Translations under genes and position numbers: made by a program
Shown here: piece after piece, positions 2,934 through 64,000 of the stretch
Layout: the number at the start of each line of letters is the position of its first letter
How positions within the stretch are numbered: the stretch's first letter is position 1
From: Thermoanaerobaculia bacterium
Lineage (GTDB): Bacteria; Acidobacteriota; Thermoanaerobaculia; Multivoradales; JAIOJS01
Assembly: GCA_963837455.1 (NCBI GenBank)
Contig: CAWINM010000015.1
Span: 384 to 64,383 of the forward strand
Direction: 5' to 3'
DNA: 64,000 nt
Notes under the pieces: model-generated
The model's database searches: none
What the model saw: only the letters and a program-made list of their open reading frames with translations
Told to the model about the DNA's origin: nothing

Positions 2934-3218
2934 CCTGGGCACCGATCGCGAGGCGGCGTCGGCCGCCAGATCGCCAGCCGCAACCTCGACCCGCGCTCGC
3001 AGCGGCTCAACCGCGAGCTGGCGCTGGTGGTGGACGACCCCGAGCTCGCCGCCGAGCTGCGCCAGCGGATGGATCGCCACCTCGCCAACCCGGTGCGCAT
3101 CGACGAGCGCGGGTACCCCACGGGCGCCAGCGAGCGCTACCCGGGCGTGCCGCGCCGCAAGGTGTGGGAGCTGCGGCTGCTGCGGCTGCTGGCGCCGCTG
3201 GTGCGCGGCCAGCTCTGA
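2934..3218 (+). pseudogene. orphan C-terminal fragment of a phospholipase D / cardiolipin-synthase-family protein
   Basis: Reads ..IASRNLDPRSQRLNRELALVVDDPELAAELRQRMDRHL.., which is the post-HKD C-terminal segment of PLD-family enzymes. Third-position GC is near 100%. An in-frame TGA lies just upstream and there is no N-terminal part. Confidence 0.5.
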
Positions 3219-3304
3219 CCGCCGCCAGGCGGCAGCCGCCGTCCGCCCAACGCACCCATAGAATGGCCGTGGCAGCGACCCCGATGCTCGCCAAGGAGGT
3301 ACGG

Positions 3305-4057
3305 ATGCGCGCGTTTTCGGTCGGAGGCTTCGCCGCGGTGCTCCTCCTGCTCGGCTCGCAAGCCGTGGCACCGGCGCGCGCCGCCGAGGATGTCGCCGCG
3401 GTGCTGCAAGGCCAGGCTCAGGATCTGTTCGACGCCATCAGCAGCGGCAAGGGTGAGGTCTGGGACCGCCTCCTCGATGCCGATGCCCGCATCACCGCAG
3501 AGGACGGCTCGGTGTCGACCAAGGCCGAGATGGTGGCGCAGGTGAAGCCGCTGCCGGAGGGGGTCTCCGGCACCATCACCGTCACCGACTTCCAGGCCAC
3601 CGTCCACGGCTCGGTAGCGATCGCGACCTACGTCACCGACGAGCACGAGCAGTACCACGGGCACTCGCTGCACTGCCACTACCGCTCCACCGATACCTGG
3701 GTGCGGAGCCCTGCGGGGTGGCGCCTGCTGGCCAGCCAGGTGCTCGCCCTGCGCACGGATCCGCCTGCGATCGAGCTCGCCCCCGAGCAGGTCGCCAGCT
3801 ACCTCGGCCGCTACAACCTGGCGCCGGGCATCGACTACGAGATCCGGCTCGTCGACGGCGCCCTGCAGGGGCAGCGCAGCGGGCGCCCCGCCGAGACTCT
3901 GCGCGTCGAGGCGCCCGACGTCCTCTTCGTGCCCGGCTCGCCCCGCTATCGGAAGATCTTCCACCGCGACGCCGCCGGCAAGGTCACCGGCTTCGCCGAG
4001 CGGCGCGAGGCATGGGACCTCGACTGGTCGCGGGTGGGCGACCGCACCGGCGGCTGA
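3305..4057 (+). CDS. secreted DUF4440 (SnoaL/NTF2-like) plus DUF3471-like domain protein
   Basis: AAGGAGG RBS 5 nt before ATG 3305. Signal peptide MRAFSVGGFAAVLLLLGSQAVAPARA. The C-terminus (YLGRYNLAPGIDYEIRLVDGAL..) resembles the DUF3471 repeats of the hydrolase at 6725-8381. Confidence 0.6.
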   Translation: MRAFSVGGFAAVLLLLGSQAVAPARAAEDVAAVLQGQAQDLFDAISSGKGEVWDRLLDADARITAEDGSVSTKAEMVAQVKPLPEGVSGTITVTDFQATVHGSVAIATYVTDEHEQYHGHSLHCHYRSTDTWVRSPAGWRLLASQVLALRTDPPAIELAPEQVASYLGRYNLAPGIDYEIRLVDGALQGQRSGRPAETLRVEAPDVLFVPGSPRYRKIFHRDAAGKVTGFAERREAWDLDWSRVGDRTGG

Positions 4058-4338: not shown

Positions 4339-5986
4339 ATGAACCGCTCCTGGATGGCACTGTCCCTCGCCATGACCGCCCTCGCCACACCGGCATCGTC
4401 GACCACCATCACCGTCACCACCGACGTCGACGACGTCACCGTCAATGGCAACTGCACGCTGCGCGAGGCGATCCAGGCGGCGCAGACCGACCTCGGCGTG
4501 GATGCGTGTGCGGCCGGCTCGCCGACGCTGCCCGACACCGTGCTCATCCCCGGCAACCCCACGCTCGCGCTCGGAACCCTCGCCGTGGTCTCGGGCTCCG
4601 GACCGCTGGTCCTGCGCGGCACCGCATCTCCCGGCCCCTCGGTCCTCAACGGCTCGTTCTCCGACCCGCAGCTCATCCTCAGCGTGGGGCCGGGCGCCGA
4701 CGTCACGGTCGACTCGCTCGAGCTGCGGGTCGGCGGCTTCGGGGCGATCCGCGCCCAGAACGCGACCCTCGCCCTCCACGACGACGTCTTCGGCTTCGAC
4801 TTCGGCTCCTTTGGTGGCGCCCTCAGCTACACGGCCGCCGGCGCCGTCAGCCTGACGGTCGAGCGCTGCGTCTTCTCGGGCAACGGCGCCAACAACGACA
4901 TGGGTGACGCCTTCGGAGGAGGGGCGCGTGTCGCCGTGCAGGCGGGCGCCCGCGCGCGCATCGTCGACTCGACCTTCCTGGGCAACCAGGTGTCGTCAGT
5001 GGACAACGCCATCGGCGGAGGGCTGCATGGCTTCGTGGGAGCCGCGTCCTCGCTCGAGATCGTGCGCTCGACCTTCGACCTCAACCAGGTCGACCCCGGA
5101 GTGGGCGGCGCCGGCGAGGGGCTCGGGAGCCTGGCTGTCCGCGAGCGGAGCCGGTGCGCGAATCGCAGTGGTCGACTCCGTCTTCACCTCGAACCACACC
5201 GTCGCGCCCGGTCCCAACGCCCCGACAGGAGCCCTTCATATCGAGGTGTCCAGCGGCGCCACCCTGGTTCTCGACCGCTTGCGCCTGGAGCACGACGACG
5301 CTGGAGGCCAGGGCCAGCACCTCGTGGTGCTCGCCACCGGCAACGCCACCATCTCCGCCACCAACCTCCTCATCGCCGATGGACCGGAGACCGGCTTCAA
5401 CCTGCAGTGCGCGGACGGCAGACTGCCTCGTCGGGCACGTCACCCTCGCCGGCCACGGCACGCGCGCCGCGATCCTCGCCGCCAACGGCACGGGCGCGCT
5501 GCGGCTGGAGAACTCGATCCTCTTGGACAGCGAGGCGCTGGCGGCTGAGCGGGCCGGTGATCATCGACCCCTCGACGCTTCGGCGACGGCAGCGACCCCG
5601 GTCTTCGCTCGATGCTTCCAGCGACGACTACTCGCTCGCCGCCGGCTCGCCGGCATGGACTTCGGCAACTCGGCTCTGGCGAGCGTCCACGCCCTCGACG
5701 CCGCGCACGGCCCGCGCGTGGTTGGGCCTCAGACCGACGCGGGCGCCTTCGAGCTCGGCGCGCTCTTCGAGGACGGGCTGGAGAGCGGCGACGTCGGCGC
5801 CTGGAGCGAGTCTCTGCCGACGAGGGCGGCGGCCGCGGCATATTGGTCGATCCCTCATTCACCTTCGACCTCTCGCTCGCGAACAGCGTCGTCGCCGGCA
5901 ACACCGACGGCGGCGGTACGGCGATCGACTCCGACTTCTACTTCGAGCGCGGCGACACCCTGCTGTGGAGCGCCGAGGCGCCGTAA
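4339..5986 (+). pseudogene. secreted right-handed beta-helix protein (CxLREAI / choice-of-anchor-Q-like), at least five frame switches
   Basis: Signal peptide, then NGNCTLREAIQAAQ. Repeated ..GGA..V....F.GN.. turns continue through ORFs 4339.., 4904.., 5154.. and 5612..5986 in different frames. Confidence 0.6.
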
Positions 5987-6151
5987 CCGCGTAGGACGGA
6001 AAATCACGATCGGCGCGCCGAGGCGGCGCCGGCCGGAGACGTCGGGCGCGCTAGCCGCGTCCCTTCGCCGCTGGCGGCAAGGGGCATCGGCGGCGTGACG
6101 GCGCCGGCCGTCCCTGTGTACGCTTGTCGCCTTCAGGTGGAGGTGGAAGGC

Positions 6152-6712
6152 ATGGCATGGATCCGGACGATTCCATTCCCCGCGGCGGACGCGGCCCTGC
6201 AGCGGGCCCTCGAGGGGCAGCGCGCCCTCTACCCCCCGGAGTACGCCCGCGACGCGAGCGACGATGGCAGCACCAGCATCGTGGCCTCGCACACTCTCAT
6301 CCCCGACGCCCTCTACCACGCCTTCGCCACCTTCGGCGTGCTGATGGCGCCCGAGCTGCCTCTGTCGCGCCGGCAGCACGAGATGATCGCCACCCGCGTC
6401 TCGGCGCTCAACCGGTGCCAGTATTGAATCCAGGCCCACGCAGAGTTTCTGCGTCGCGTGACCCTGGATGACGAGCTGGCGCGGTGCCTGCGCGAGGACT
6501 ACGAGAACGCCCCCCTCTCCGCCGCCGAGCGCGCCATGCTCGACTACGCCGGCACGCTGACCGTCGACGCCACGCGCGTCGGGCCCGCCGACCACGAGCG
6601 GCTGCGCACCCACGGCTTCGACGACCGTGGCATCCTGCAGATCACCCTCATCGCCTCCTGGTTCAACTACGTCAACCGGGTGGCGGACGCGCTGGGGATC
6701 GGGCGCGAGTAG
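6152..6712 (+). CDS. AhpD/carboxymuconolactone-decarboxylase-family peroxidase-related protein with in-frame UGA 6425-6427 (candidate selenocysteine)
   Basis: ORFs 6095..6427 and 6458..6712 share one frame. Joined, the sequence reads ..SALNRCQY[TGA]IQAHAEFL.., i.e. CxxU at the family's CxxC..H redox motif. GGAGGTGGAAGG precedes ATG 6152. Confidence 0.7.
6430..6467 (+). promoter_or_regulatory. candidate bacterial SECIS hairpin
   Basis: Perfect 6-bp stem 6438-6443 (ACGCAG) / 6449-6454 (CUGCGU) with loop AGUUU. An outer 5-bp stem pairs 6430-6434 (CCAGG) with 6463-6467 (CCUGG). The loop G lies about 18 nt 3' of the UGA. Confidence 0.45.
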
Positions 6713-6724
6713 CCGCCGCCGCGG

Positions 6725-8381
6725 CTACTTCCTGGGAGCCCGCATGTCGAGGCCGTTCTGGTGCAGCGTCACGGCCACCACCTTGGCGGCCTGGTCGCGC
6801 TCGAAGGTGAGCGCGGCCGCCACCAGGTCGTACTCGAAGCGGTCCTTGCCGACGCAGTAGACCGGCAGCGCCTGCTGGCCGGTGAGCATCGCCAGCAGCA
6901 CCTCGCCGCGCGTCGAGACGGTGATCTTCGAGCCCGGTTGGAAGGCGCCGAAGTCGTAGTCGCCCACGTACTCGGCGAGCGCCGCGGCGTTGGGGAACTC
7001 GATGTGCGGGGGCGGTGAGTCGTCGCGCGTGAGCGGGGAGATCGCGACCGTTCTGGTGCAGGGTCAGCCCACCGACCTTGCCGCCGGCGTCGCGGTGGAA
7101 GCTAAGCTGGGCGTCGACGACCCGGTAGAAGAACTCGTCCCTGGCGCTGGCGAAGATGGGAAGGAACGGCTGCCCGGTAAGCCGCGCCACCAGGCCGTCG
7201 CCGCGGCGCACGATGGTGAAGCGCGCCTGCTTGTCGATGGGGTAGACGCCGACGTAGTCGTCGAGGGTGGCGAGCGGCAGGGTGACCTCCACCCGGGCGG
7301 CGTGCTCTTCGCCTGCCGTCTGCCACGTTGCCAGCCAGGCGAGCGGATTGGCGACCGCGTTGCTCGCCAGCACGACGACGCCGCGACCCTTGGCGGGCCA
7401 CACCTCGACGATGCTGCGGTAGCCGCCGGTGCCGCCCTCGTGCCCATAGCTGTCGCCCCAGCCGTCGCCATGGTCGAGGGTCACGTGCTCGAGCGCCAGG
7501 CCCACCTTGCCCCCGATCAGCGGCATCTCGACGTAGTCGCCGGCGAGGATGGGCCATGCCTTGCCCAGCGGCCCCTCACGCCCGGCGAGTAGGGCATCGG
7601 CGAGCTTGCTCATGTCGGCCGTCGTCGAGTGCAGGGCGCCGGCGCCGGCGATCGCCTCGAACGTCCACTCGTGGGCGGGCTCGGTACCGTTCCACGGTTG
7701 GGCGAGCCGGCCACGCTGCTCCGCCGAGAGCTGCTGCACGGTGTCGACCAGGCCGAGCGGAGCGGCGATCCTCTCCTGCACGAGGGTCGCCCACGGTTTG
7801 CCATGGACCCGCTCGAGCACCACCCCGAGAGCTCCGAACCCGAGGTTGGAGTAGGCCGGCGCGCACGGGGGCTGCCCTTCGACCTGGGCAGACTTCAGGT
7901 ACTCGAACAGCGCCCGGTCGTCGTACTGGGCGTAGGGGTCGGCGAGGTCGGCGTGCATCATGTTGTCCGGCAGCCGCGGCAGGCAGGAGGTGTGGGTCGC
8001 CAGCTGCCGCAGCGTGACGCCCCCGGTCTGCGGGTGCTCGAACGCGACCGGCAGGCGCTTCGCGAGCGTGTCGTCGAGAGAGAGCTTGCCCTCGACGACC
8101 GCATCGGCGAGCAGGATGCCCGTGAAGACCTTCGAGATCGAGCCGATCTCGAACAGCACCTTCTCGGGCGCGACTTCGGCGTGCCCGGCGGCGAAGGGCT
8201 CGCCGGCGAGGGCGTACCGCCACCGCCCGTCGCGCCTCTCGGCAGTGGCGATGGCACCATGGCCGAGGGTCGGCGCCAGGCTCGCCGCTTCGACGGCGAA
8301 CGGCGGCCTCTCGCCAGCCTGGGCCCCCGTGCGGGCGAGCACGAGCAGGATGAGGAGGAGGGACGGTGGCAGTCGTCTCAT
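6725..8381 (-). pseudogene. secreted serine hydrolase (class C beta-lactamase/PBP family) with two C-terminal DUF3471 repeats; one frame switch near 7045
   Basis: Signal peptide MRRLPPSLLLILLVLARTGAQA. SISK (SxxK) motif and YSN motif. The last repeat (ORF 6725..6967) is in a different frame from the body (ORF 6672..9011). Confidence 0.75.
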
Positions 8382-36482: not shown

Positions 36483-38972
<2,490 letters not shown>

Positions 38973-38987
38973 CGGGCACCTCGCGGG

Positions 38988-39191
38988 TCAGAGCACCGGC
39001 ACGCCCTCCCGGCGCGGGCCGCGCGGGAAGGCAGCGTCGATGCGGGCGAGCTCGTCGTCGCCGAGCTCGAGGTCGGCCGCCGCGGCGTTGGCCTCGACGT
39101 GCTCGACGTGGCTGCTCTTGGGGATGTTCCAGGTGCCCTGGCCGACGACGGCCACCGGGCGCCCGCCGGGACCGAACGGTGCCGTGCGCAT
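38988..39191 (-). pseudogene. 67-aa remnant of an aldo/keto reductase (N-terminal and C-terminal ends joined, core deleted)
   Basis: ..VAVVGQGTWNI (resembling the AKR N-terminal G-x-G-T-W motif) is followed directly by PKSSHVEHVEANAAAADLELGDDELARIDAAFP (resembling the AKR C-terminus). About 250 aa of barrel are missing. Confidence 0.5.
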
Positions 39192-39195
39192 GGGG

Positions 39196-40068
39196 CTAGC
39201 CCAGCCTGCTCCGCAGGCAGAGGAGCCGCCGCAGCAGCTCCGCCACCTCGAGCTGCGAGGCTAGCGTGAAAGCGGCCGCCGTGGGCCGGTCGGCTCCCAC
39301 CCGCACCGTCACCGCGTCATCGCCGGCGAGGGCCGCGAAGGCATCCTCGTCGGTGGTGTCGTCGCCGACGTAGAGCACGACCTCGCCGCCGGCGCGGTGC
39401 CGCAGCCGCTCCATCGCCGCGCCCTTGCCGGTCCCCGCCGGGCGTGCCTCGACCACCTCCTTGCCGCGCAGGACCTCGAATCCGACCACGGCGCGCGCGG
39501 CCAGCTCGAAGGACGCCGCCGCTGCGGCAGCGTCCTCGGCCGCCGCCAGCCGGGTGTGCAGGGCGAGGCTCGCGCCCTTGTCCTCGACCCGCACACCGTC
39601 ATGGCGGGCGGCGATGGCGGCGGCGCCCCGGCGCAGCGGCGCCAGCGCCGCCGCCGTCGCCTCGAGGTCGATCGCCGGCAGCACCTCCCCGCTCGGCGAG
39701 GCGAGCTCGAGCCCGTGCAGCCCCACCATCCACACCCCTTCGGTGCCGACGAGATCGCGCAGCTGCGCCACCGGGCGGCCGCTCACCACGGCCACCGTGG
39801 TGCCCGGGCGGCTTGCCAGCGCGGCGAGCGCCGCGCGCGTCTCGTCGTCGGCGAGCGCCTGCTCCGGGGTGGGCTGGATGGGAACCAGCGTGCCGTCGAA
39901 GTCGAAGGCGGCGAGGAGCGTGCCGGCGGCGAGTCGGGGCACCAGCTCCGACCAGCGGTCCCAGAGGAGCAGCGACGGGCCGCCCTGGCGCCCGGGCGGC
40001 GCCTCCTGCCGCTCCCCACCGGCCGCGCCAACCGGCCGCACCGCCGTCTTCGTCACTCCCTGAGCCAT
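39196..40068 (-). CDS. otsB: trehalose-6-phosphate phosphatase (HAD family)
   Basis: LLAAFDFDGTLVPI (DxD motif), VAVVSGRP, GKGAAM and LYVGDDTTDEDAF. Follows otsA with a 3-nt gap. Confidence 0.8.
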   Translation of the reverse strand: MAQGVTKTAVRPVGAAGGERQEAPPGRQGGPSLLLWDRWSELVPRLAAGTLLAAFDFDGTLVPIQPTPEQALADDETRAALAALASRPGTTVAVVSGRPVAQLRDLVGTEGVWMVGLHGLELASPSGEVLPAIDLEATAAALAPLRRGAAAIAARHDGVRVEDKGASLALHTRLAAAEDAAAAAASFELAARAVVGFEVLRGKEVVEARPAGTGKGAAMERLRHRAGGEVVLYVGDDTTDEDAFAALAGDDAVTVRVGADRPTAAAFTLASQLEVAELLRRLLCLRSRLG

Positions 40069-40071
40069 CTC

Positions 40072-41670
40072 TCAGTGCAGGGCGCGACGGCGAGCGTCAC
40101 TTCCCCGTTGCTCCGCCGGTCGCTCGGCGGCCCCGCGCTTGTCGCCGCCACCGGCCCGCGCCGGCATCCCCTTGCGGGTTGCCACCACCGCCGCAAGGAT
40201 GGTGGCGAGCCAACCGTGCACGTCGCAGGCCTCGACGCGAGCCTGCAGCCGCTCCATGCGCCGCCGACGCTCCTCGGCCGGCATCGCCAGCGCCTGTGCC
40301 AGCGCCTCGGCGGTCTCCTCGACGGCGAAGGGGTTGATAGCAGCGCGCCGTCGCCGAGGGCATTGGCGGCGCCGGTCAGCTCGGAGAGCACCAGCACGCC
40401 ATCGCGGCCCTGCTGGCAAGCAACAGTACTCCTTGGCGACGAGGTTCATGCCGTCGCGCAGCGGCGTGACGTAGCCGACGGCGGCGTTGCGGTAGAGCAG
40501 CGAGAGCTGCCCGCGCCCGAACGAGCGGTACATGTACCGCACCGGCACCCAGTCGGCGTCGCCGTACTCGCCGTTGGTCCGGCCGACGATCTTCTCGATG
40601 CGCTCGCGCTGCTCGGCGTACTCGGGCACGTCGCCGCGCGAGGGGACGGAGATCTGCATGAGCGAGACGGCTGCGGCGCCACTCGGGCTTGAGACTCGAG
40701 CAGCCGCGCGAAGCCGGCGAGCCGCTCCGGGATCCCCTTGGTGTAGTCGAGGCGGTCGACACCGAGCACCAGCCGGCGCTTGTCGAGGCCGCGGCAATCC
40801 GCTCGCGAGCTCCTCGACCGTCTTGCCGCCGGCGGCTCCTGGAACGTCTCGGGGATCGATGCCGATCGGGAAGGCGCCGAGGCGCACCTCGCGCCCCTCC
40901 CAGCGCACGATGTGACGCGCGTGATCGACCTCGGCGCCGAGCAGCCGCTGGCAGCAGCCCAGGAAGTCGCCGGCGTAGTCCTCGGTGTGGAAGCCGACGA
41001 GGTCGGCGCCGAGCAGACCGGTGAGCACCTGCCGCCGCCAGGGGAGCACCCGGAACACCTCCTCGGTGGGGAACGGGATATGGAGGAAGAAGGCGAGCGG
41101 GCCGCCGTCGGGCCGGCGCTCGCGGATCTTTCGCGGCAGCAGGCAGAAGTGGTAGTCGTGCACCCAGACCACGTCCCCGGGCGCCGCCTCCTCCACCACC
41201 ACCCGCGCGAAGCGCTCGTTGATCCGCTCGTACTGGCGCCACTCCTCCTCGTCGAAGCGGCAGCGGTCGACGAAGTAGTGAAACAGCGGCCACAGCGCGC
41301 GGTTGGCGAAGCCGTGGTAGTAGCCTGCCACCTCGCGCTGGGTGAGCGGTACCTGCCGCAGCGTGAACTGCGGGGCCTCGCCAGGAACCTGGTAGCGCGA
41401 CTCGAGCTCGGGGCTCTCGTCCGGCTGCCAGGCGACCCAGACGCCTCCCGAGCCGCGCATGACGGGATCGAGCGCCGAGACCAGACCGCCGGCGGTGCGC
41501 TCGAAGCGCACCCCATCGGCGGTACGCTTGCGCACGTAGGGCTCGCGGTTGGAGACCAGCAGCAGGCGGTGCCCGCCGAGCAGCCGCTGGGTGAGGCTCT
41601 CGCCGGGCTTCGCTTCCGCCGCGGGAGCCGTGCTGTAAGGTCTTCCGGGGGACGTTTGTAGGTCTTCCAT
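40072..41670 (-). pseudogene. otsA: alpha,alpha-trehalose-phosphate synthase (GT20), at least five frame switches
   Basis: LLLVSNREPY, GGLVSAL, YYHGFANRALWPLFHY, VWVHDYHF.LLP, FFLHIPFP and GADLVGFHT are in ORF 40072..41670. LVLGVDRLDYTKGIPERL is in ORF 40446..41930. VLVLSELTGAA is in ORF 40053..40397. Confidence 0.8.
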
Positions 41671-41812
41671 CGCAAGACGGTCGCGAGCGGCCAGCCGGAG
41701 TGCCGTGCCAGCGACCTGAGGTCAACAGTCCAGGGTGCAAGCGGCCTGCCGCGGAGAGCGGATCTGGCCGCACCGCTCGGGCGCCGGCAAGCTCTTCGCA
41801 AACCGCCGCGAC

Positions 41813-43887
41813 ATGCCACGCCACCGTACCATGCCCCCCTCGGACGCAAGACCCGGAGCCCTTCCAGACATCGAGCCACCGCCGCTCGCCCTCGAGGGGC
41901 GGCAACGCGTCGTCGTCGAGGCGGTGACACCCTGCGTCGACGGCGGCGCCTTCCCCGCCAAGCGCACGCTGGGCGACCGCGTCGTCGTCGAGGCCGACGC
42001 CTTCACCGACGGCCACGACCTGGTGGCGGCACGGCTGCTCTATCGTCCCGCCGGCGAGGGCAGCTGGCGCGAGGCGGCGATGCTGCTGCTCGGCAACGAC
42101 CGCTTCGGCGGCGAGCTGACCGTCGATCGTCTGGGCCGCTGGGAGATCGCCGTCGAGGGGTGGATCGACGCCTTCGGCAGCTGGCGCCGCGACCTCGCCA
42201 AGCGCGAGGCCGCCGGACAGGTGACGGCGACCGACCTGGCGATCGGTGCGGACCTCGTCGCCGCGGCGGCGCGGCGGGCGCCGGCCGGCGAGCGGAGTGC
42301 GCTCGAGGAGCTCGCCACCAACCTCGACGAGAGCTCCCTCGAGGCCGCGGCCCGCGTCCCTCTCGCCCTCGACAGCGAGCTGCACCAGCTCGTGGCGCGC
42401 TTCCCCGACCGCAGCTTGGCAACCCGCAGCCTGTCGCTTGCCGTCGTCGTCGACCCCACGACCGCACGCTTCTCGAGCTGGTACGAGATGTTCCCGCGCT
42501 CGGCCGCCGGCGAGCCGGGTCGCCATGGCACGTTGCGCGACGTCATCGCCCGCCTCGACTACGTTGCCGGCATGGGCTTCGACGTGCTCTACCTGCCCCC
42601 CATCCACCCCATCGGCGAGACCCACCGCAAGGGCCGCAACAACACCACCACGGCAACGGCCGACGACGTCGGCAGCCCGTGGGCGATCGGCAGTGGCGAC
42701 GGTGGCCACGACGCCATCCACCCGGCGCTCGGCACGCTCGCCGACTTCCGCGACCTCGTCGCCGCGGCGGGACGGCGCGGCCTGCGCGTCGCCCTCGACC
42801 TCGCCTTCCAGTGCTCGCCCGACCACCCCTGGGTCGGCGAGCACCCGCAGTGGTTCCGCCACCGCCCCGACGGCAGCATCCAGCACGCCGAGAACCCGCC
42901 CAAGAAGTACGAGGACATCGTCCCCTTCGACTTCGAGTCGAGCGACTGGCGCGCGCTGTGGGTAGCGCTCGCCGGCGTCGTCGAGCACTGGGTGGCGCAG
43001 GGGGTGGAGCTGTTCCGCGTCGACAACCCGCACACCAAGGCCTTCCCGTTCTGGGAGTGGCTGATCGCCGAGGTGCGCGGACGGCATCCGCAGGTGCTCT
43101 TCCTCGCCGAGGCCTTCACGCGCCCGAAGGTGATGTACCGCCTCGCCAAGGTCGGCTTCTCGCAGTCGTACAACTACTTCCCGTGGCGCACCAGCAAGCG
43201 CGACCTCACCACCTACTTCAGCGAGCTCGGGCGCCCGCCGGTGGCCGAGTCTTTCGCCCCAACCTGTGGATCAACACCCCCGACATCCTCACCGAGCAGC
43301 TGCAGCACGGCGGCCGCGCCGCCTTCGCCCAGCGCCTGGTGCTGGCCGCCACCCTGGGCGCGAGCTACGGCGTCTACGGCCCCCCCTTCGAGCTCCTCGA
43401 GGCGCAGCCGCGCGAGGCCGGCAGCGAGGAGTATCTCGACTCGGAGAAGTACCAGCTGCGCTTCTGGGATCTCGCGGCGCGTCCGAGCCTCGCCGAGCTC
43501 ATCGCTCGCATCAACCGCATCCGCCGCGACAACCCCGCCCTGCAGCACGACCGCGGGCTCGCCTTCCACGCCATCGACAACGAGGCGCTGCTCGCCTACA
43601 GCAAGGTCGCGCCCGAAGGCGACAACGCCGTGCTGGTGGTGGTCAACCTCGACCCCACCCACGCCCACGGCGGCTGGCTCGAGCTCGACGCCGCCGCCCT
43701 CGGCACGGCGGTGGGCGGCGAGGTTCCCGCTCGCCCGTTCCAGGTGCACGACCTGCTCACCGACACCCGTTTCCTCTGGCAGCCGGGCCGCAACTACGTC
43801 GCTCTCGACCCGCAGTCGGTGCCGGCGGCGATCTACCGGGTCCGCCGCCGGGTGCGCAGCGAGGTCGACTTCGACTACTTCATGTGA
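41813..43887 (+). pseudogene. glgE: alpha-1,4-glucan:maltose-1-phosphate maltosyltransferase; single frame switch near 43250
   Basis: FSSWYEMFPRS, DVLYLPPIHPIG.THRKGRNN, FRVDNPHTK and [15 protein letters not shown] (ORF 41735..). Then [22 protein letters not shown] (ORF 42160..43887). A codon reads gag-tc-ttt where one nt appears to be missing. Confidence 0.85.
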
Positions 43888-43904
43888 GAGCGAGTCCCAC
43901 CCAC

Positions 43905-47402
<3,498 letters not shown>

Positions 47403-47485
47403 CCCACCGGTGTGCTCCACCTCGCTGGGAACGCGCGCTCGGCCCACCGCCGCCCGCTCGCCGGCCGCCGCTTATACTCGCCAGC

Positions 47486-47707
47486 ATGCGATCCGTTGCC
47501 GACGACCTGCGGCGGGAGCAGCGCCGGGCGCTCGCCCTGCTCACTCCGGCCGAGCGCGTCGCCCTCGCGCTCCGTCTCGGCCAGCGCGACACGCGGACCT
47601 TCGCGGCGACCCAGCGGCTGACCATCGAGCAAGCTCGCCGGTCGCTGCGGCAACGTCGCCAGCGGGGCCGCCGCGCGTCGCGCTGCATGGACGACAGCCG
47701 GGATTGA
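47486..47707 (+). CDS. small hypothetical protein (antitoxin-like partner of the following nucleotidyltransferase fragment, tentative)
   Basis: 73 aa: MRSVADDLRREQRRALALLTPAERVALALRLGQRDTRTFAATQRLTIEQARRSLRQRRQRGRR... The stop overlaps the next ORF's TTG (TTGA). Confidence 0.35.
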   Translation: MRSVADDLRREQRRALALLTPAERVALALRLGQRDTRTFAATQRLTIEQARRSLRQRRQRGRRASRCMDDSRD

Positions 47708-47946
47708 CGCTGCTCGACCTGGTCGCTGGTCGGCTCGAGTCCCTGGGCATTCCCTACTGTGCCATCGGCGCCTCCGCTCTCGCCGCCCACGGCGTCAGCC
47801 GCGCCACGCGGGACATCGACCTCTTCACGGTCTCCAGCGTTGCCCTCGAGCAGGGGTCGTGGGCCCATCTCCACCGCCGGTCACCTGGGATCCGGCATCA
47901 TTCCTGCTGGGGAACGCGCCATGACGCAAGGGGCAGCGATGAGTGA
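47704..47946 (+). pseudogene. truncated nucleotidyltransferase-family fragment
   Basis: [42 protein letters not shown] resembles the N-terminus of uncharacterised/AbiEii-like nucleotidyltransferases. It degenerates after about 55 aa and overlaps the glgB start. Confidence 0.4.
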
Positions 47947-49852
47947 AGGTGGTGGGCGGATCTACCTGCTCACCGCCGACGACCTCCACCTCTTCAACGA
48001 GGGTACCCACTACCGCCTCTACGAGAAGCTGGGCGCCCACCCCGGGGAGTCGGAGGGCGTCGCCGGCACCTACTTCGCCGTCTGGGCGCCCAACGCCGCG
48101 CGCGTCGCCGTGGTGGGGGACTTCTCCGACTGGCGCCCCGATGCCCACCCGCTCGCGCCGCGGGGCAGCTCGGGGATCTGGGAGGGGTTCGCGCCGGGCG
48201 TCGGCGCGGGGGCGCTCTACAAGTACTGGATCGAGTCCGCCGCCCACCAGGGGTACCGGGTGGACAAGGCCGATCCGCTCGCCTTCCGCGCCCAGCTGCC
48301 CCCGGAGACCGCCTCCGAGGTGGCGGACCTCGCCCACCAGTGGCACGACGGCGCCTGGATGGCCGGGCGCGGCGGTCGCGGCGACCTGGCGGCGCCCGTG
48401 TCCATCTACGAGGTCCACCTGGGCTCCTGGCGGCGCGTCGTCGAAGAGGGCAACCGCTCGCTCACCTACCGCGAGCTCGGCCCCGCGCTCGCCGACCACG
48501 CCCTCGACCTCGGCTTCACCCACGTCGAGCTGCTGCCGGTGATGGAGCACCCCTTCTACGGCTCGTGGGGCTACCAGACCACCGGTTACTTTGCACCGAC
48601 CCGCCGCTACGGCACCCCCGAGGAGCTGATGGGGATGATCGACCACCTCCACCAGCGCGGGCTGGGGGTGATCCTCGACTGGGTGCCCTCGCACTTCCCC
48701 AGCGACGAGCACGGCCTCGCCTACTTCGACGGCACCCACCTCTTCGAGCACGAGGACCCGCGGCTCGGCTTCCATCCCGAGTGGAACAGCTACATCTTCA
48801 ACTACTCCCGCCACGAGGTGCGCAGCTTCCTGGTCTCCTCGGCGCTGTTCTGGCTCGACCGCTACCACGCCGACGGCCTGCGGGTGGACGGCGTCGCCTC
48901 GATGCTCTACCGCGACTACGCGCGCAAGGAGGGGGAGTGGCTCCCCAACGAGCACGGCGGCCGCGAGAACCTGGAGGCGGTCGCCTTCCTGCGCGCGCTC
49001 AACGCCGAGGTCTACGAGCAGTACCCCGACACCCAGACCTACGCCGAGGAGTCGACCGCATGGCCGGGCGTGTCACGGCCCACCTACGTCGGCGGCCTCG
49101 GCTTCGGCTTCAAGTGGGACATGGGCTGGATGCACGACACGCTCGAGTACCTGGCCCTCGACCCCGTGCACCGCAAGTACCACCACGACCGCCTCACCTT
49201 CCGCCGCATGTACGCCTACAGCGAGAGCTTCTGCCTGCCGCTCTCTCACGACGAGGTGGTCCACGGCAAGCGCTCGCTGCTCTCCCGCATGCCGGGCGAC
49301 GAGTGGCAGCGCTTCGCCAACCTGCGCCTGCTCCATGCCTGGCAGCACGCGCAGCCTGGCAAGAAGCTGCTGTTCATGGGCGGCGAGATCGGACAGGTGC
49401 GTGAGTGGGACCACGACAGCAGCCTCGACTGGCATCTGCTCGAGCAGCCGTTGCACCGCGGCGTGCAGCGGCTGGTCGGCGACCTCAACCGCCTCTATCG
49501 TGCCGAGCCGGCCCTCCACGAGCTCGACTGCGACCCCGCCGGGTTCGAGTGGATCGACGCCAACGACGCCGAGCAGAGCGTGGTGACGCTGCTGCGCCTC
49601 GGCAAGGACCCCGCCGAGGCGGTCCTCGTCGCCCTCAACTTCACCCCGGTGGTGCGCCGCAACTACCGGCTGGGAGCGCCGCGCGGCGGCTTCTGGCGTG
49701 AGCTGCTCAACACCGATGCGAGGGACTACGGCGGCAGCGGGCAGGGAAACCTGGGCGGCGTCGAGGCGGCGCCGGTGCCGCTACACGGGCGCAGCCACTC
49801 GCTAACGCTGACCCTGCCGCCGCTCGGCGCGGTGTTCCTCAAGGCGGGCTGA
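47921..49852 (+). CDS. glgB: 1,4-alpha-glucan branching enzyme
   Basis: [76 protein letters not shown] and [12 protein letters not shown]. Confidence 0.9.
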
Positions 49853-49870
49853 GCGGGGCCCCGAGGGAGC

Positions 49871-50071
49871 CTACTCGGGCCAGTCGTCCTCCTGCCGCGG
49901 CTGCGGACCGAGGACGATGCCCGCGAGGTCCGGATCCTCGCCGGGGACGGCATTGGCCAACCGAGCGCGCTTCTCCTCCTGCCGCTTCTGCATCTTCGCC
50001 GCCTTCTCCTGCTGGCGCTGGCGGCGCGCCATCTCTCTCTGCCGCTTGGTCGTGCCGGAGTTCATCGCCAT
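49871..50071 (-). CDS. small Arg/Lys/Gln-rich hypothetical protein
   Basis: 66 aa: MAMNSGTTKRQREMARRQRQQEKAAKMQKRQEEKRARLANAVPGEDPDLAGIVLGPQPRQEDDWPE. The RBS is weak. Confidence 0.4.
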   Translation of the reverse strand: MAMNSGTTKRQREMARRQRQQEKAAKMQKRQEEKRARLANAVPGEDPDLAGIVLGPQPRQEDDWPE

Positions 50072-50168
50072 ACGGGGAGCCTGCCTTTTCCCTGGTTCCT
50101 GGGGACTTCGCGGCCTCGCCGGCCGCGCCTGAGGGTGGTCGCGCCCGCAGGCGCGCTCCCCCAGTGTG

Positions 50169-51815
50169 TCACACCGGCCTCGAACGACCCCCCGAGGACC
50201 CCGGGAACCCACCGTCGAGACCCAGCACCACCCCCTCGTCGGCCCGCAGCTCGAGGCTGCGGTGGACGCGCTCACCGGCGCGGTCGAGGTGGGTCGACAG
50301 CGCCACCACGCCTGCGAGCTGCAGTAGCGGCGGCGCGTAGGTGGCCGGCTCGGAACCGAGGTTGAGGGCCACCAGGAAGCGCCGGTCGCCGTCCTTGCGC
50401 ACCCAGGCGAGGAGGTCGCCTCCCGCCCGCAGCGGCGCGAAGGGGCCGACGGCGAGCGCCGGCTCCGCTCGCCGCAGCGCCAGCAGGCGGCGGTAGAGGG
50501 TGAGCGGGGATCGCGGGTCGTCACGCTGTGCAGCGACGTTCACCGCCGCGGCGTCCGACGCCACCGGCAACCAGGGCTCGCCACCGGTGAAGCCGGCGCC
50601 CGGGCCATCGTCCCACTGCATCGGTGTGCGCTCCGGGTCGCGCCCGAGCCCGAGCCCCGGGACGTTGCGCGCGAAGGGGTCGCGTACCCGGTCGGGGGGG
50701 ATCGGCACGTCGCGCATGCCGATCTCGTCGCCGTAGTAGAGCGTCGGCGTGCCGCGCAGGGTGAGCAGCATCATCGCCGCCACCCGCGCCTGCGCCGGCC
50801 CGACGCGGCTCGCCACCCGGCTCTTGTCGTGGTTGCCGAGCACCCAGCTCGGCCAGCCGAAGGTGGGCAGCAGCGCCTCGTAGGCCTCGATGGCGTCCCC
50901 GATTGCCGCCGCCTCCCAGGGTCGCCGGATGAGCTGGAAGTTGAACGGCAGGTTCACCCCGCTGCCGGCGGCGCCGTAGTAGAGCATCAGCCGCTCGAGC
51001 GGCAGGTAGAGCTCGCCGATGAGCATCCGGTCGGGAAACTCGTCGACCACGGCGCGCAGGCCGGCGATCACCTCATGCACCTCCGGGAGATCGGCGGTGT
51101 GGGTGGCGAGCAGGCGCCGGTAGGGGTTCTGCCCCGGCACCCAGTCGGGGTTGGGCGGGTTGTCGCGCAGCGCGGCGTCCTTGGCCAGGTGGTGGATGAC
51201 GTCGACCCGGAAGCCGTCGACACCCCGCCGCAGCCAGAAGCGCAGCACCTCGTGCATGGCGGCGCGCACCGCCAGTTGGCGCCAGTCGAGGTCGGGCTGC
51301 TGGCGCAGGAACGAGTGGTGGTAGTACTGGCCGCTCGCCGCGTCGAGCTCCCAGGCGCTGCCGCCGAACACCGAGATCCAGTTGTTGGGCGGGCCGCCAC
51401 CGGGAGCCGGATCGCGCCAGTGGTACCACCCCCGCCTGGGGCTCTGGCGCGAGCTCCGCGATTCGAGGAACCAGGGATGCTGGTCGGAGGTGTGGTTGGG
51501 GACGAAGTCGAGCAGCACCTTGAGCCTGCGCTCGTGGGCCGCGGCGATCAGCGCGTCGAGGTCGGCGAGGGTACCGAAGCGGGGATCGACGTCGCAGTAG
51601 TCGGCGACGTCGTATCCCCAGTCGGCCATCGGCGAGGGATGGATCGGCGACAGCCAGAGGGCGTCGACGCCCAGCCACTGCAGGTAATCGAGGCGCGACA
51701 GCAGGCCCGGCAGGTCGCCGAAGCCGTCACCGTCGGAGTCCTGGAAGGAAAGCGGGTAGACCTGGTAGATCGCTCCGCGCTGCCACCAGGCGTACGTCTC
51801 GCGGCACTCTCCCAC
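50169..51815 (-). CDS. GH13 alpha-glucosidase (oligo-1,6-glucosidase / trehalose-6-P hydrolase-like)
   Basis: WWQRGAIYQVYP.SF.DS.GDG.GDL.G, LSPI..SP..D.GYDV.DY, DFVPNHTS..HPWF, GFRVDVI, IGE and NHD. Confidence 0.85.
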   Translation of the reverse strand: MGECRETYAWWQRGAIYQVYPLSFQDSDGDGFGDLPGLLSRLDYLQWLGVDALWLSPIHPSPMADWGYDVADYCDVDPRFGTLADLDALIAAAHERRLKVLLDFVPNHTSDQHPWFLESRSSRQSPRRGWYHWRDPAPGGGPPNNWISVFGGSAWELDAASGQYYHHSFLRQQPDLDWRQLAVRAAMHEVLRFWLRRGVDGFRVDVIHHLAKDAALRDNPPNPDWVPGQNPYRRLLATHTADLPEVHEVIAGLRAVVDEFPDRMLIGELYLPLERLMLYYGAAGSGVNLPFNFQLIRRPWEAAAIGDAIEAYEALLPTFGWPSWVLGNHDKSRVASRVGPAQARVAAMMLLTLRGTPTLYYGDEIGMRDVPIPPDRVRDPFARNVPGLGLGRDPERTPMQWDDGPGAGFTGGEPWLPVASDAAAVNVAAQRDDPRSPLTLYRRLLALRRAEPALAVGPFAPLRAGGDLLAWVRKDGDRRFLVALNLGSEPATYAPPLLQLAGVVALSTHLDRAGERVHRSLELRADEGVVLGLDGGFPGSSGGRSRPV

Positions 51816-62711: not shown

Positions 62712-64000
62712 GTGCTCGGTCCGCCTACCGGTTTCTGGGGGAAGCTCGAGAGCGTCAACGGTGTCGCCGTCGCCTGGCACCCGCTCGCTCATCACTGCGC
62801 CGACGTTGCGGCGTGCTGCGAGGCGCTGCTCGAGCAAACGCTCTTGCGACAACGCCTTGCGCGCACCGCAGGGCTCTACGACCTCTCACCGATTCAGGTC
62901 GCAAGGCTGTGCTCGCTCGCAGCCTTTCATGACCTGGGCAAGTTCAATCGTGGCTTCCAGAACAAGGCATTCCCGGGTCGAACGCCGTGGGCCGGGCATC
63001 TCGCCGAGTTTCTAGCGCTTCTCGACGGCACCTGCTCCGATACCGCCAACCGAGAGCGTCTCGCTGGAGCGTTCCCCTTCCCCGAAGTGAGCGCGTGGGG
63101 AGACGACCTGCTCGGTCTCTTCGTTGCAACCATCAGCCACCATGGTCGGCCGGTGCAACCTGAGCCCCGGCACTGCGACCGATCGCCAGAGTGCTGGACG
63201 CCCGGCGAGGATGTCGATCCGTTCGCTGGAATTTCAGAGCTCGTCGCCCTGGTGCGGACCTGGTTCCCCGAGGCCTGGGCCGAGAACGGCGAACAATTGC
63301 CCACCTCCCCACCGTTCCAGCATGCATGGTGCGGGTTGCTGACTCTCGCGGACTGGTTGGGATCTGACAGTCGCCCCGGATTCTTCCCGTTTGGCGACGT
63401 CAGTTGCGATCGCATGGCCTTCGCCCGCGAGCGCGCCACCCAACGGCTCCGTGATCTCGGCCTCGACGCGACATCGGCCCGTCGGGCTCTCGGGGCCGAT
63501 TCGCCTGGCTACGAGCGCGTGCTCGGTGTGGTCTCGCCGCGACCGGCGCAGTTGCGAATGCTCGATCTCCGATGTTCGCCAGTCGGGGCCGTGGTCGTCC
63601 TCGAGGCACCGACAGGCTCGGGCAAGACAGAAGCCGCGCTCGCCCACTTCCTTCGGCTCTTTCACGCAGGCTTGGTGGATGGCATGTACTTCGCGCTTCC
63701 GACGCGGGCCGCCGCAAGCCAGATCTATGAGCGGGTCTACTCCGCTGCGCGCTACGCCTTCGGAGACGCGGCCCCGCCCGTGGTACAGGCTGTGACGGGC
63801 TACATCAAAGCCGATGGGGTCGTGGGAGTCCCTCTGCCACCCTTCACTGTCCTCTGGCCCGACGACCCGGCGGACCGCCTGCATGCCCGTGGATGGGCCG
63901 CGGAGAACCCCAAACGGTTTCTCGCCGGTTCGATCGTCGTCGGCACCATCGACCAGGTGCTGCTGTCGACCCTCAAGGTGCGCCACGCGCACCTGCGCAG
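62712..64000 (+). CDS. cas3: CRISPR-associated nuclease/helicase Cas3 (type I-E-like), 5' part only. Runs off the window, with a possible 1-nt insertion near 63960.
   Basis: Frame 0 is open from TAG 62694 to the window end. GTG 62712 is preceded by GAGGGTGAG. FWGKL..WHPLAHHCADVAA, FHDLGKFNRGFQNK, SHHGRP, LADWLGSD, LEAPTGSGKTE, FALPTRAAASQIYERV and GTIDQV(c)LLSTLKVRHAHLR. Not listed in the supplied ORF track because no stop falls within the window. Confidence 0.85.
   Translation, partial: MLGPPTGFWGKLESVNGVAVAWHPLAHHCADVAACCEALLEQTLLRQRLARTAGLYDLSPIQVARLCSLAAFHDLGKFNRGFQNKAFPGRTPWAGHLAEFLALLDGTCSDTANRERLAGAFPFPEVSAWGDDLLGLFVATISHHGRPVQPEPRHCDRSPECWTPGEDVDPFAGISELVALVRTWFPEAWAENGEQLPTSPPFQHAWCGLLTLADWLGSDSRPGFFPFGDVSCDRMAFARERATQRLRDLGLDATSARRALGADSPGYERVLGVVSPRPAQLRMLDLRCSPVGAVVVLEAPTGSGKTEAALAHFLRLFHAGLVDGMYFALPTRAAASQIYERVYSAARYAFGDAAPPVVQAVTGYIKADGVVGVPLPPFTVLWPDDPADRLHARGWAAENPKRFLAGSIVVGTIDQVLLSTLKVRHAHLR

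Follow-up and report, generated by a model that had tools for sequence, protein, structure and literature searches.

We analysed a 64-kb stretch of DNA from a Thermoanaerobaculia bacterium (hereafter the window) and propose with high confidence that its forward strand at 6152-6712 carries one gene for an AhpD-like thiol/selenol oxidoreductase of the TIGR01926/COG2128 type, in which residue 92 is selenocysteine (Sec), encoded by an in-frame UGA at 6425-6427. The gene is continuous through this codon and its product belongs to the family. The UGA lies in a column that holds either TGA or Cys in relatives and is followed by a helix under selective conservation, and purifying selection acts on the sequence downstream of it.

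A single reading frame interrupted by UGA

The gene forms one 186-codon frame (UGA-92 counted) that is broken only by TGA 6425-6427 and terminates at TAG 6710-6712; the whole forward strand from 6095 to 6712 reads as a single frame with one internal stop. The original prediction held that two same-frame open reading frames (ORFs), 6095-6427 and 6458-6712, are split solely by this TGA, that the joined product is a peroxidase-related CMD/AhpD-type protein, and that the TGA stands at the second Cys of a C-x-x-C...H motif, here C-Q-Y-stop-I-Q-A-H. The sequence, the profile matches and the homologue alignments bear out all three points. The likely start codon is ATG 6152, judging from a GGAGG 8 nt before it and from the family N-terminus M-A-W-I-R-T-I-P, which is found in all homologues. 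The features of the gene are as follows.

6139-6143 (+): GGAGG resembling a Shine-Dalgarno sequence, 8 nt before the start codon, apparent from the sequence and of putative function
6152-6712 (+): complete predicted AhpD-like (TIGR01926) selenoprotein coding sequence, from the single frame, profile matches and homologue alignment
6380-6382 (+): codon of Glu77, putative proton-relay Glu (AhpD profile position 118), invariant in the homologue alignment and mapped through TIGR00777
6416-6418 (+): TGC codon of Cys89, which opens the C-x-x-U redox motif, from sequence and alignment
6425-6427 (+): in-frame UGA, predicted selenocysteine codon, residue 92; the column is TGA in relatives and Cys in Cys forms
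6437-6439 (+): CAC codon of His96, a conserved active-site residue four positions past Sec, invariant in the alignment

Coding character persists on both sides of the TGA, with a third-position GC of 0.86 before it and 0.95 after it, and the gene itself contains no frameshift and no second stop. Comparison with eight close relatives gives a dN/dS of 0.13-0.31 before the TGA and 0.20-0.37 after it; against the closest two, loci L005 and L006, the downstream value is 0.26-0.33. A separate downstream gene starting at GTG 6458, the next possible start at codon +11, was considered and rejected because this GTG is not conserved (it is present in only 33 of 78 relatives) and conserved residues precede it: the 10 residues between the TGA and GTG 6458 hold five invariants, H96, E98, F99, L100 and R101. 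An antisense ORF at 5855-6613 (-) was likewise rejected. It lacks coding-like third-position GC and clusters across loci merely as a shadow of the conserved sense gene. Of 55 predicted genes in the window, 37 end with TGA; it is thus the commonest normal stop and is not reassigned. Six other same-frame ORF pairs across stops in the window look like gene boundaries or antisense shadows; only the stop at 6425 lies inside a conserved domain.

Family assignment of the product

Profile and domain searches used the product with U replaced by C. It scores 111 bits against the NCBIfam model TIGR01926 ("peroxidase-related enzyme"; cut-off 81.8), with residues 50-183 on profile positions 39-173 of 178, and passes the AhpD core domain TIGR00778 (38.6 versus a cut-off of 27.8). 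The Pfam CMD domain PF02627 matches residues 55-111 (8.5e-10, 38.9 bits versus a gathering score of 23), which is a fold-level assignment that does not imply decarboxylase activity. Scores fall below the cut-off for TIGR00777, AhpD proper (22.2 bits versus 191.95), and for the equivalog models NF041238, AhpD_rel_CFYUT (seleno)protein (62.5 versus 175 bits), and NF053654, YciW-related (seleno)protein (42.7 versus 310 bits).

The weak TIGR00777 alignment places residues 75-108 on profile positions 116-149, with E77, C89, U92 and H96 at positions 118, 130, 133 and 137. We take these positions to be the Glu118/Cys130/Cys133/His137 catalytic set of M. tuberculosis AhpD, in which Cys133 is presumably the attacking nucleophile. 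The nearest solved relatives by sequence are 2pfx (E = 6e-26), 3c1l (Mlr4105), 2oyo, 2prr and the AhpD structure 6k40, with E-values up to 2e-17; the first four come from structural genomics and are annotated as uncharacterized peroxidase-related proteins. In the 2pfx and 3c1l alignments, C-x-Y-C-L-x-A-H falls on C89/U92/H96, with Cys at the position of the TGA.

UGA is the common form at the Sec/Cys column

A protein search of a 5.8-billion set returned 963 matches, and the best 120 listed are full-length (~188 residues) with 61-70% identity. The product aligns over its full length with 188-residue homologues at 62-76% identity, and the UGA column holds Cys in 15 of 19 aligned homologues, Trp in three and Leu in one, so the conserved Cys expected at this column is indeed present. 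The DNA behind two of the Trp entries, the public records P0004 (L002:291-863) and P0112 (L003:82-648), carries TGA that was read with the wrong genetic code and translated as Trp at the Sec position. The third Trp entry, P0055, has a genuine TGG, and the Leu entry, P0069, has TTA.

We then turned to nucleotide-level relatives. The family alignment was scanned against one genome per species for 185,579 species, which yielded 398 relatives, of which the best 80 were kept. In 80/80 of these (65-76% identity), the column is TGA. Their record titles name Thermoanaerobaculia (the top two, at 75-76%), Blastocatellia/Pyrinomonadaceae, Vicinamibacteria, Terriglobia, Gemmatimonadota and Planctomycetota. 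A metagenome scan, seeded on purpose with a Cys-form-first alignment, gave 568 relatives, and the column in the best 80 comprises 79 TGA and one CGA (L121). Altogether, TGA occupies the column in 161 loci other than the window.

Among close relatives, these alignments show the predicted Sec form to be the usual one. Gene callers break it up, as the original prediction had anticipated, and thereby keep it largely hidden from protein databases: full-length Sec forms occur in public protein sets solely as Trp mistranslations (P0004, P0112), and the others are absent. Because Sec forms are thus mistranslated or missing, protein-level searches give a misleading, Cys-dominated picture of the family.

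Three loci carry one-base variants of the TGA, namely TGG at L001:955-957, TTA at L004:2598-2600 and CGA in L121, and retain the exact minihelix described below. They may represent recent Sec loss, in which case the alleles are probably inactive, or metagenome base-call errors. No helix-bearing gene has TGC or TGT at the Sec column. In addition, TAT is the Tyr codon immediately before the UGA (6422-6424 in the window) for 64 of 83 genome-derived and 46 of 79 metagenome-derived Sec forms, and ~85-89% of their other conserved Tyr codons are TAC; this bias may be a context effect on UGA recoding.

A conserved minihelix follows the UGA

The original prediction described a 6-bp stem with an AGUUU loop ten nucleotides past the TGA, nested in a 5-bp outer stem. 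The inner stem is as described: ACGCAG at 6438-6443 pairs perfectly with CUGCGU at 6449-6454, giving a 17-nt helix after a 10-nt spacer, and this helix is conserved in the TGA forms. The outer pairing, CCAGG 6430-6434 with CCUGG 6463-6467, exists and is extended to 7 bp by RNAfold (6428-6434 / 6463-6469), but it is lineage-specific and not conserved in the family. The elements of this candidate selenocysteine insertion sequence (SECIS) region are as follows.

6428-6434 (+): lower stem 5' arm AUCCAGG, pair probability 0.94-1.0 in free RNA, not family-conserved
6438-6454 (+): predicted SECIS minihelix, 17 nt, ACGCAGAGUUUCUGCGU, from its conservation, synonymous-site conservation and a Sec-versus-Cys contrast
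6463-6469 (+): lower stem 3' arm CCUGGAU, from RNAfold, not family-conserved

The hairpin downstream of the TGA exceeds chance expectation: the segment 6425-6475 folds at -21.2 kcal/mol (z = -3.2), and only 1 of 200 shuffles was equally stable. The minihelix alone has a dG of -8.2 kcal/mol. It can also be drawn as a 7-bp stem with a GUU triloop, and its loop G is at 6445.

RNAalifold on an ungapped alignment of 83 TGA forms detects a single conserved helix, at columns 21-26 / 30-35, corresponding to 6439-6444 / 6448-6453 in the window. An extra pair, 6438-6454, is present in 76 of the 83, and the sole stem variation is an A to G change at 6442 that retains a G-U pair. The lower stem was accordingly rejected as part of the conserved element, and the minihelix is the only helix conserved across the family. 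On the alignment, both the lower stem and a competing helix described below appear lineage-specific, because their codons (+1 to +3 and +10 to +14) vary freely.

Selection on this helix is visible in codon choice. Codon entropy at conserved residues is ~0 only at codons +4 to +9 and 0.4-2.2 bits elsewhere. These codons make up the near-invariant 18 nt of the TGA forms, CAC GCA GAG TTT CTG CGT, in which CAC, GAG, TTT and CTG are each present in 83/83, GCA in 80/83 and CGT in 76/83; the last two bases of the His96 codon CAC begin the minihelix. GCA, TTT and CGT are minority choices for Ala, Phe and Arg elsewhere in these genes, and the window gene keeps all three despite its high third-position GC after the TGA. 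The stem keeps all of its six pairs in 148 of 162 TGA forms versus none of six Cys forms (Fisher p = 1.4e-6), and at least five in 162/162. The six Cys-form genes read differently at these codons: GCC/GTC/GCG, mostly TTC, and mostly CGC/CGG.

A scan for a UGA followed by a 6-bp helix with a GUU-type loop found no second instance in the window; in the relatives' loci, six extra matches were checked and none lies in an ORF.

Weighing the selenocysteine assignment

Several observations weigh against a functional Sec codon at 6425. In the free 51-nt RNA, the optimum contains a competing inner helix, CACGC 6437-6441 with GCGUG 6456-6460; it folds at -21.2 versus -16.6 kcal/mol for the conserved helix, whose pair probability is ~3-4%. 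No compensatory stem changes were detected by RNAalifold across the 83 TGA forms, and the case for the helix is built on synonymous-site conservation and on a Sec-versus-Cys contrast with six Cys-form DNA controls. Rfam finds no SECIS match in the whole window at gathering score. A covariance-model scan, a kind of check suggested at the outset, was run on 6300-6600; at E <= 10 it returned no SECIS family and only a chance gntR-DTE match (E = 6.9). Sec machinery is absent from the window, as the original prediction had noted: ARAGORN detects no tRNA in the 64 kb, and thus no tRNA-Sec, and none of 49 window ORF translations contains a SelA, SelB or SelD domain (Pfam). A tblastn search of the window and 168 loci (1.48 Mb) with E. 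coli SelD and SelA gave no match, a weak negative because the queries were approximate. Finally, several genes of the window are split, which points to an indel-error-prone assembly or to pseudogenes.

The folding result depends on the state of the RNA. Removal of the first ~12 nt after the UGA raises the pair probability of the conserved helix to 0.9-1.0, and about 12 nt after the UGA would be expected to lie inside a ribosome that holds the UGA in its A site. With respect to the machinery, Acidobacteria are known at the phylum level as Sec users (PMC1794560), with Occallatibacter riparius as an example (PMC12013277).

A first alternative is that the family is a true selenoprotein family and this copy is dead, either because the Sec machinery has been lost or because the gene is decaying, so that UGA 6425 just terminates translation. 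The lack of sel genes and tRNA-Sec in the window would fit, as would possible pseudogenisation of at least two nearby genes, those for glycogen phosphorylase and GlgE, which are split across frames. Against decay stand a gene with neither frameshift nor second stop, its third-position GC of 0.95 and its dN/dS of 0.26-0.33 (against L005/L006) past the TGA, and a minihelix in which every base is intact; these measures of dN/dS, GC and helix integrity would not reveal a loss that happened very recently. We consider a dead copy quite improbable.

A second alternative, which we judge very improbable, is that the UGA is read through independently of SelB and Sec, by an opal-suppressor allo-tRNA or a selC*-type tRNA(Cys)UCA that inserts Ser or Cys. 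Such tRNAs have been described, some of them in Acidobacteria and delta-proteobacteria (PMC5389517). A generic suppressor, however, needs no positioned helix with a loop G that is confined to UGA-bearing genes, and it would act in a window where TGA is the commonest normal stop. The family is, moreover, catalogued as a selenoprotein family (PMC13188914), and no tRNA of this kind was found in the window or in the 170 loci searched, where ARAGORN detected four ordinary tRNAs only, with no tRNA-Sec and no suppressor tRNA.

It is extremely improbable that the TGA is a nonsense mutation or a sequencing or assembly error in a Cys-form (TGC/TGT) gene: it is one base away from TGC/TGT and the assembly seems to hold indel errors, but TGA is also found in the 161 other independent loci, the window carries the Sec-form-specific codons GCA, TTT and CGT, which are combined in none of the six Cys forms, and the apparent errors elsewhere in the window are frameshifts rather than substitutions.

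Proposed mechanism of decoding and catalysis

We infer dependence on SelB, actual selenium incorporation and the chemistry of the enzyme from the features above and from homology, as follows. As the UGA arrives in the ribosome, the stretch of mRNA immediately beyond the entry channel would fold into the minihelix at 6438-6454, whose apical loop would present G6445 and the following U residues. SelB carrying Sec-tRNA(Sec) would then bind the minihelix and deliver Sec to the A site in place of release factor 2. If selenium or SelB were lacking, translation would stop and leave an inactive 91-residue fragment.

The predicted minihelix is encoded within the codons of an invariant peptide, His96-Ala-Glu-Phe-Leu-Arg101. 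In each stem pair, at least one base is fixed by the amino acid, leaving free third positions with approximately one choice (GCA, CTG and CGT; CAC is fixed too), and two free positions in or beside the loop, G6445 of GAG and U6448 of TTT, are likewise fixed. Because the amino-acid-constrained bases leave their stem partners approximately one choice, the 18 nt are near-invariant across phyla and show no covariation.

By homology with M. tuberculosis AhpD, Sec92 would stand where that enzyme has its attacking Cys133, Cys89 would be the resolving partner in a selenenyl-sulfide, and His96 and Glu77 would occupy the proton-relay positions of His137 and Glu118. By analogy, the enzyme most likely reduces peroxide, or an oxidised peroxiredoxin-type or other disulfide/sulfenate substrate.

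Genomic context and other features of the window

The gene stands alone in the window, between a secreted beta-helix-like gene upstream (4339-5990) and a convergent beta-lactamase-family/DUF3471 gene downstream, and no ahpC, lpd or dlaT partner lies adjacent to it in the window. Context assigns no substrate, because no neighbour is common to more than ~1/5 of the loci. One similarity cluster of upstream ORFs (at least 250 residues) is found in 25 of 116 loci and ends ~275 nt before the Sec/Cys codon. It spans Acidobacteriota, Gemmatimonadota and Planctomycetota, includes two Cys forms and is absent from the window. Members with called genes are amino-acid permeases (PF00324/PF13520; L004:949-2322, L087:1649-3004 and L088:1679-3004), and in these three loci the permease overlaps the AhpD-like start by 4 nt. 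A functional link to the uptake of some amino acid is possible.

A small ORF with high third-position GC, 2970-3218 (+), is related to the surroundings of the gene in L005 and L006, two Thermoanaerobaculia metagenome-assembled genome loci: its part at 2970-3152 is 67-72% identical at the protein level to L005:1464-1643 and L006:9700-9882, and the matched stretch there adjoins the AhpD-like gene directly upstream. In the window, a DUF4440 gene (3263-4057) and the beta-helix-like gene intervene between this ORF and the selenoprotein gene. At another locus, a Cys-form homologue is followed after ~1 kb by a called gene of only 103 residues with PF00837 (T4_deiodinase; L086:4490-4801). Because deiodinase-like proteins are a known bacterial selenoprotein family, a Sec codon may have cut this gene call short as well.

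Among the split genes, glycogen phosphorylase at 36483-38987 (-) is in three pieces that cover Pfam profile positions 2-164, 171-519 and 556-712, and GlgE at 41735-43887 (+) is in two. By eye, the beta-helix-like gene 4339-5990 (+) and the beta-lactamase/DUF3471 gene 6725-8381 (-) also change frame. The two former genes belong to a glycogen/trehalose cluster at 36483-51815, which further contains a trehalose-phosphatase (39196-40056), an OtsA-like GT20 gene (40072-41670), a 1146-residue TreS-maltokinase-like fusion (43962-47402), a branching-enzyme-like gene (47939-49852) and an alpha-amylase-family gene (50169-51815). Near the end of the window, a Cas3 gene at 62712-63998 (+) encodes an HD domain (1.9e-31) and the start of a DEAD helicase domain and continues beyond the window end; a type I CRISPR-Cas locus probably follows.

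Significance for annotation and selenium use

The main value of this gene lies in annotation. Standard callers give two fragments or, under genetic code 4, a Trp (as in P0004 and P0112), and protein databases therefore under-represent a predicted selenoprotein whose TGA form is found in 80/80 of the closest species genomes examined. Correct calling would change how much selenium use is attributed to soil phyla. The gene also offers a clean example of a SECIS built onto an invariant catalytic peptide, H-A-E-F-L-R, and a simple DNA signature, TGA N9 CACGCAGAGTTTCTGCGT, may be possible. It does not change what is known of selenocysteine decoding or of AhpD-type chemistry.

A wider reading would be that the Sec form is dominant in soil Acidobacteriota, Gemmatimonadota and Planctomycetota, and that the identical 18-nt SECIS reflects recent spread between phyla together with a shared SelB specificity. 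We regard this as unlikely; if true, the gene could rank among the commonest selenoproteins of soil and could serve to mark selenium dependence in soil bacteria that are largely aerobic. Even less likely is that the UGA and its helix are decoded by a non-canonical system, for example with Cys insertion.

Comparison with known systems

The minimal SECIS of E. coli fdhF is a 17-nt upper helix located 11 nt after the UGA, with a loop GU that is recognised by SelB. The predicted element in the window resembles it in having a 17-nt minihelix within the coding sequence, a comparable spacer (10 nt) and a loop G-U. It differs in sequence, in the lack of a bulged U and in its AGUUU/GUU loop, and binding of SelB to it is a prediction. 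A loop guanosine is a common feature of bacterial SECIS elements in selenoprotein surveys (PMC1088965), and G6445 would correspond to it.

With M. tuberculosis AhpD, the window protein shares the core domain TIGR00778 and an equal spacing, E-x11-C-x-x-C/U-x3-H, and by analogy the two probably share two-residue redox chemistry. Unlike that enzyme, it has a predicted Sec in place of Cys and falls below the TIGR00777 cut-off, and it is thus no AhpD orthologue. The solved relatives 2pfx, 3c1l, 2oyo, 2prr and 6k40 are likewise all Cys forms, in contrast to the predicted Sec of the window protein. NF041238, with an architecture of 357 positions, and NF053654 describe related (seleno)proteins of the CMD fold whose motif is of the C-x-Y-U type; the window gene is a member of neither.

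The closest correspondence is to the known AhpD-like selenoprotein family. This family entered the literature in 2005, when AhpD-like proteins carrying a CxxU motif (COG2128) were reported from the Sargasso Sea as new selenoproteins (PMC1088965), and it ranked fourth in abundance in the GOS survey (PMC2398784). A 2026 review lists the AhpD-like protein with TIGR01926 as its model and CxxU as its motif (PMC13188914), and the family can be browsed in BSepDB (PMC13326102); the original prediction was thus right that such selenoproteins were already described. The window gene shares with this family ('AhpD-like 1' of the ocean surveys) a TIGR01926 match above the cut-off, a CxxU motif with the predicted Sec in second position, widespread Cys-form homologues and a loop-G stem-loop after the UGA (PMC1088965, PMC2398784, PMC13188914). 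The known members come mainly from marine metagenomes, with a few from Clostridia and delta-proteobacteria, whereas the window copy and its 160 closest relatives belong to soil-type Acidobacteriota, Gemmatimonadota and Planctomycetota. Every hallmark of the known AhpD-like selenoprotein family that can be read from sequence is found in the window gene, which places it in a class that is already catalogued.

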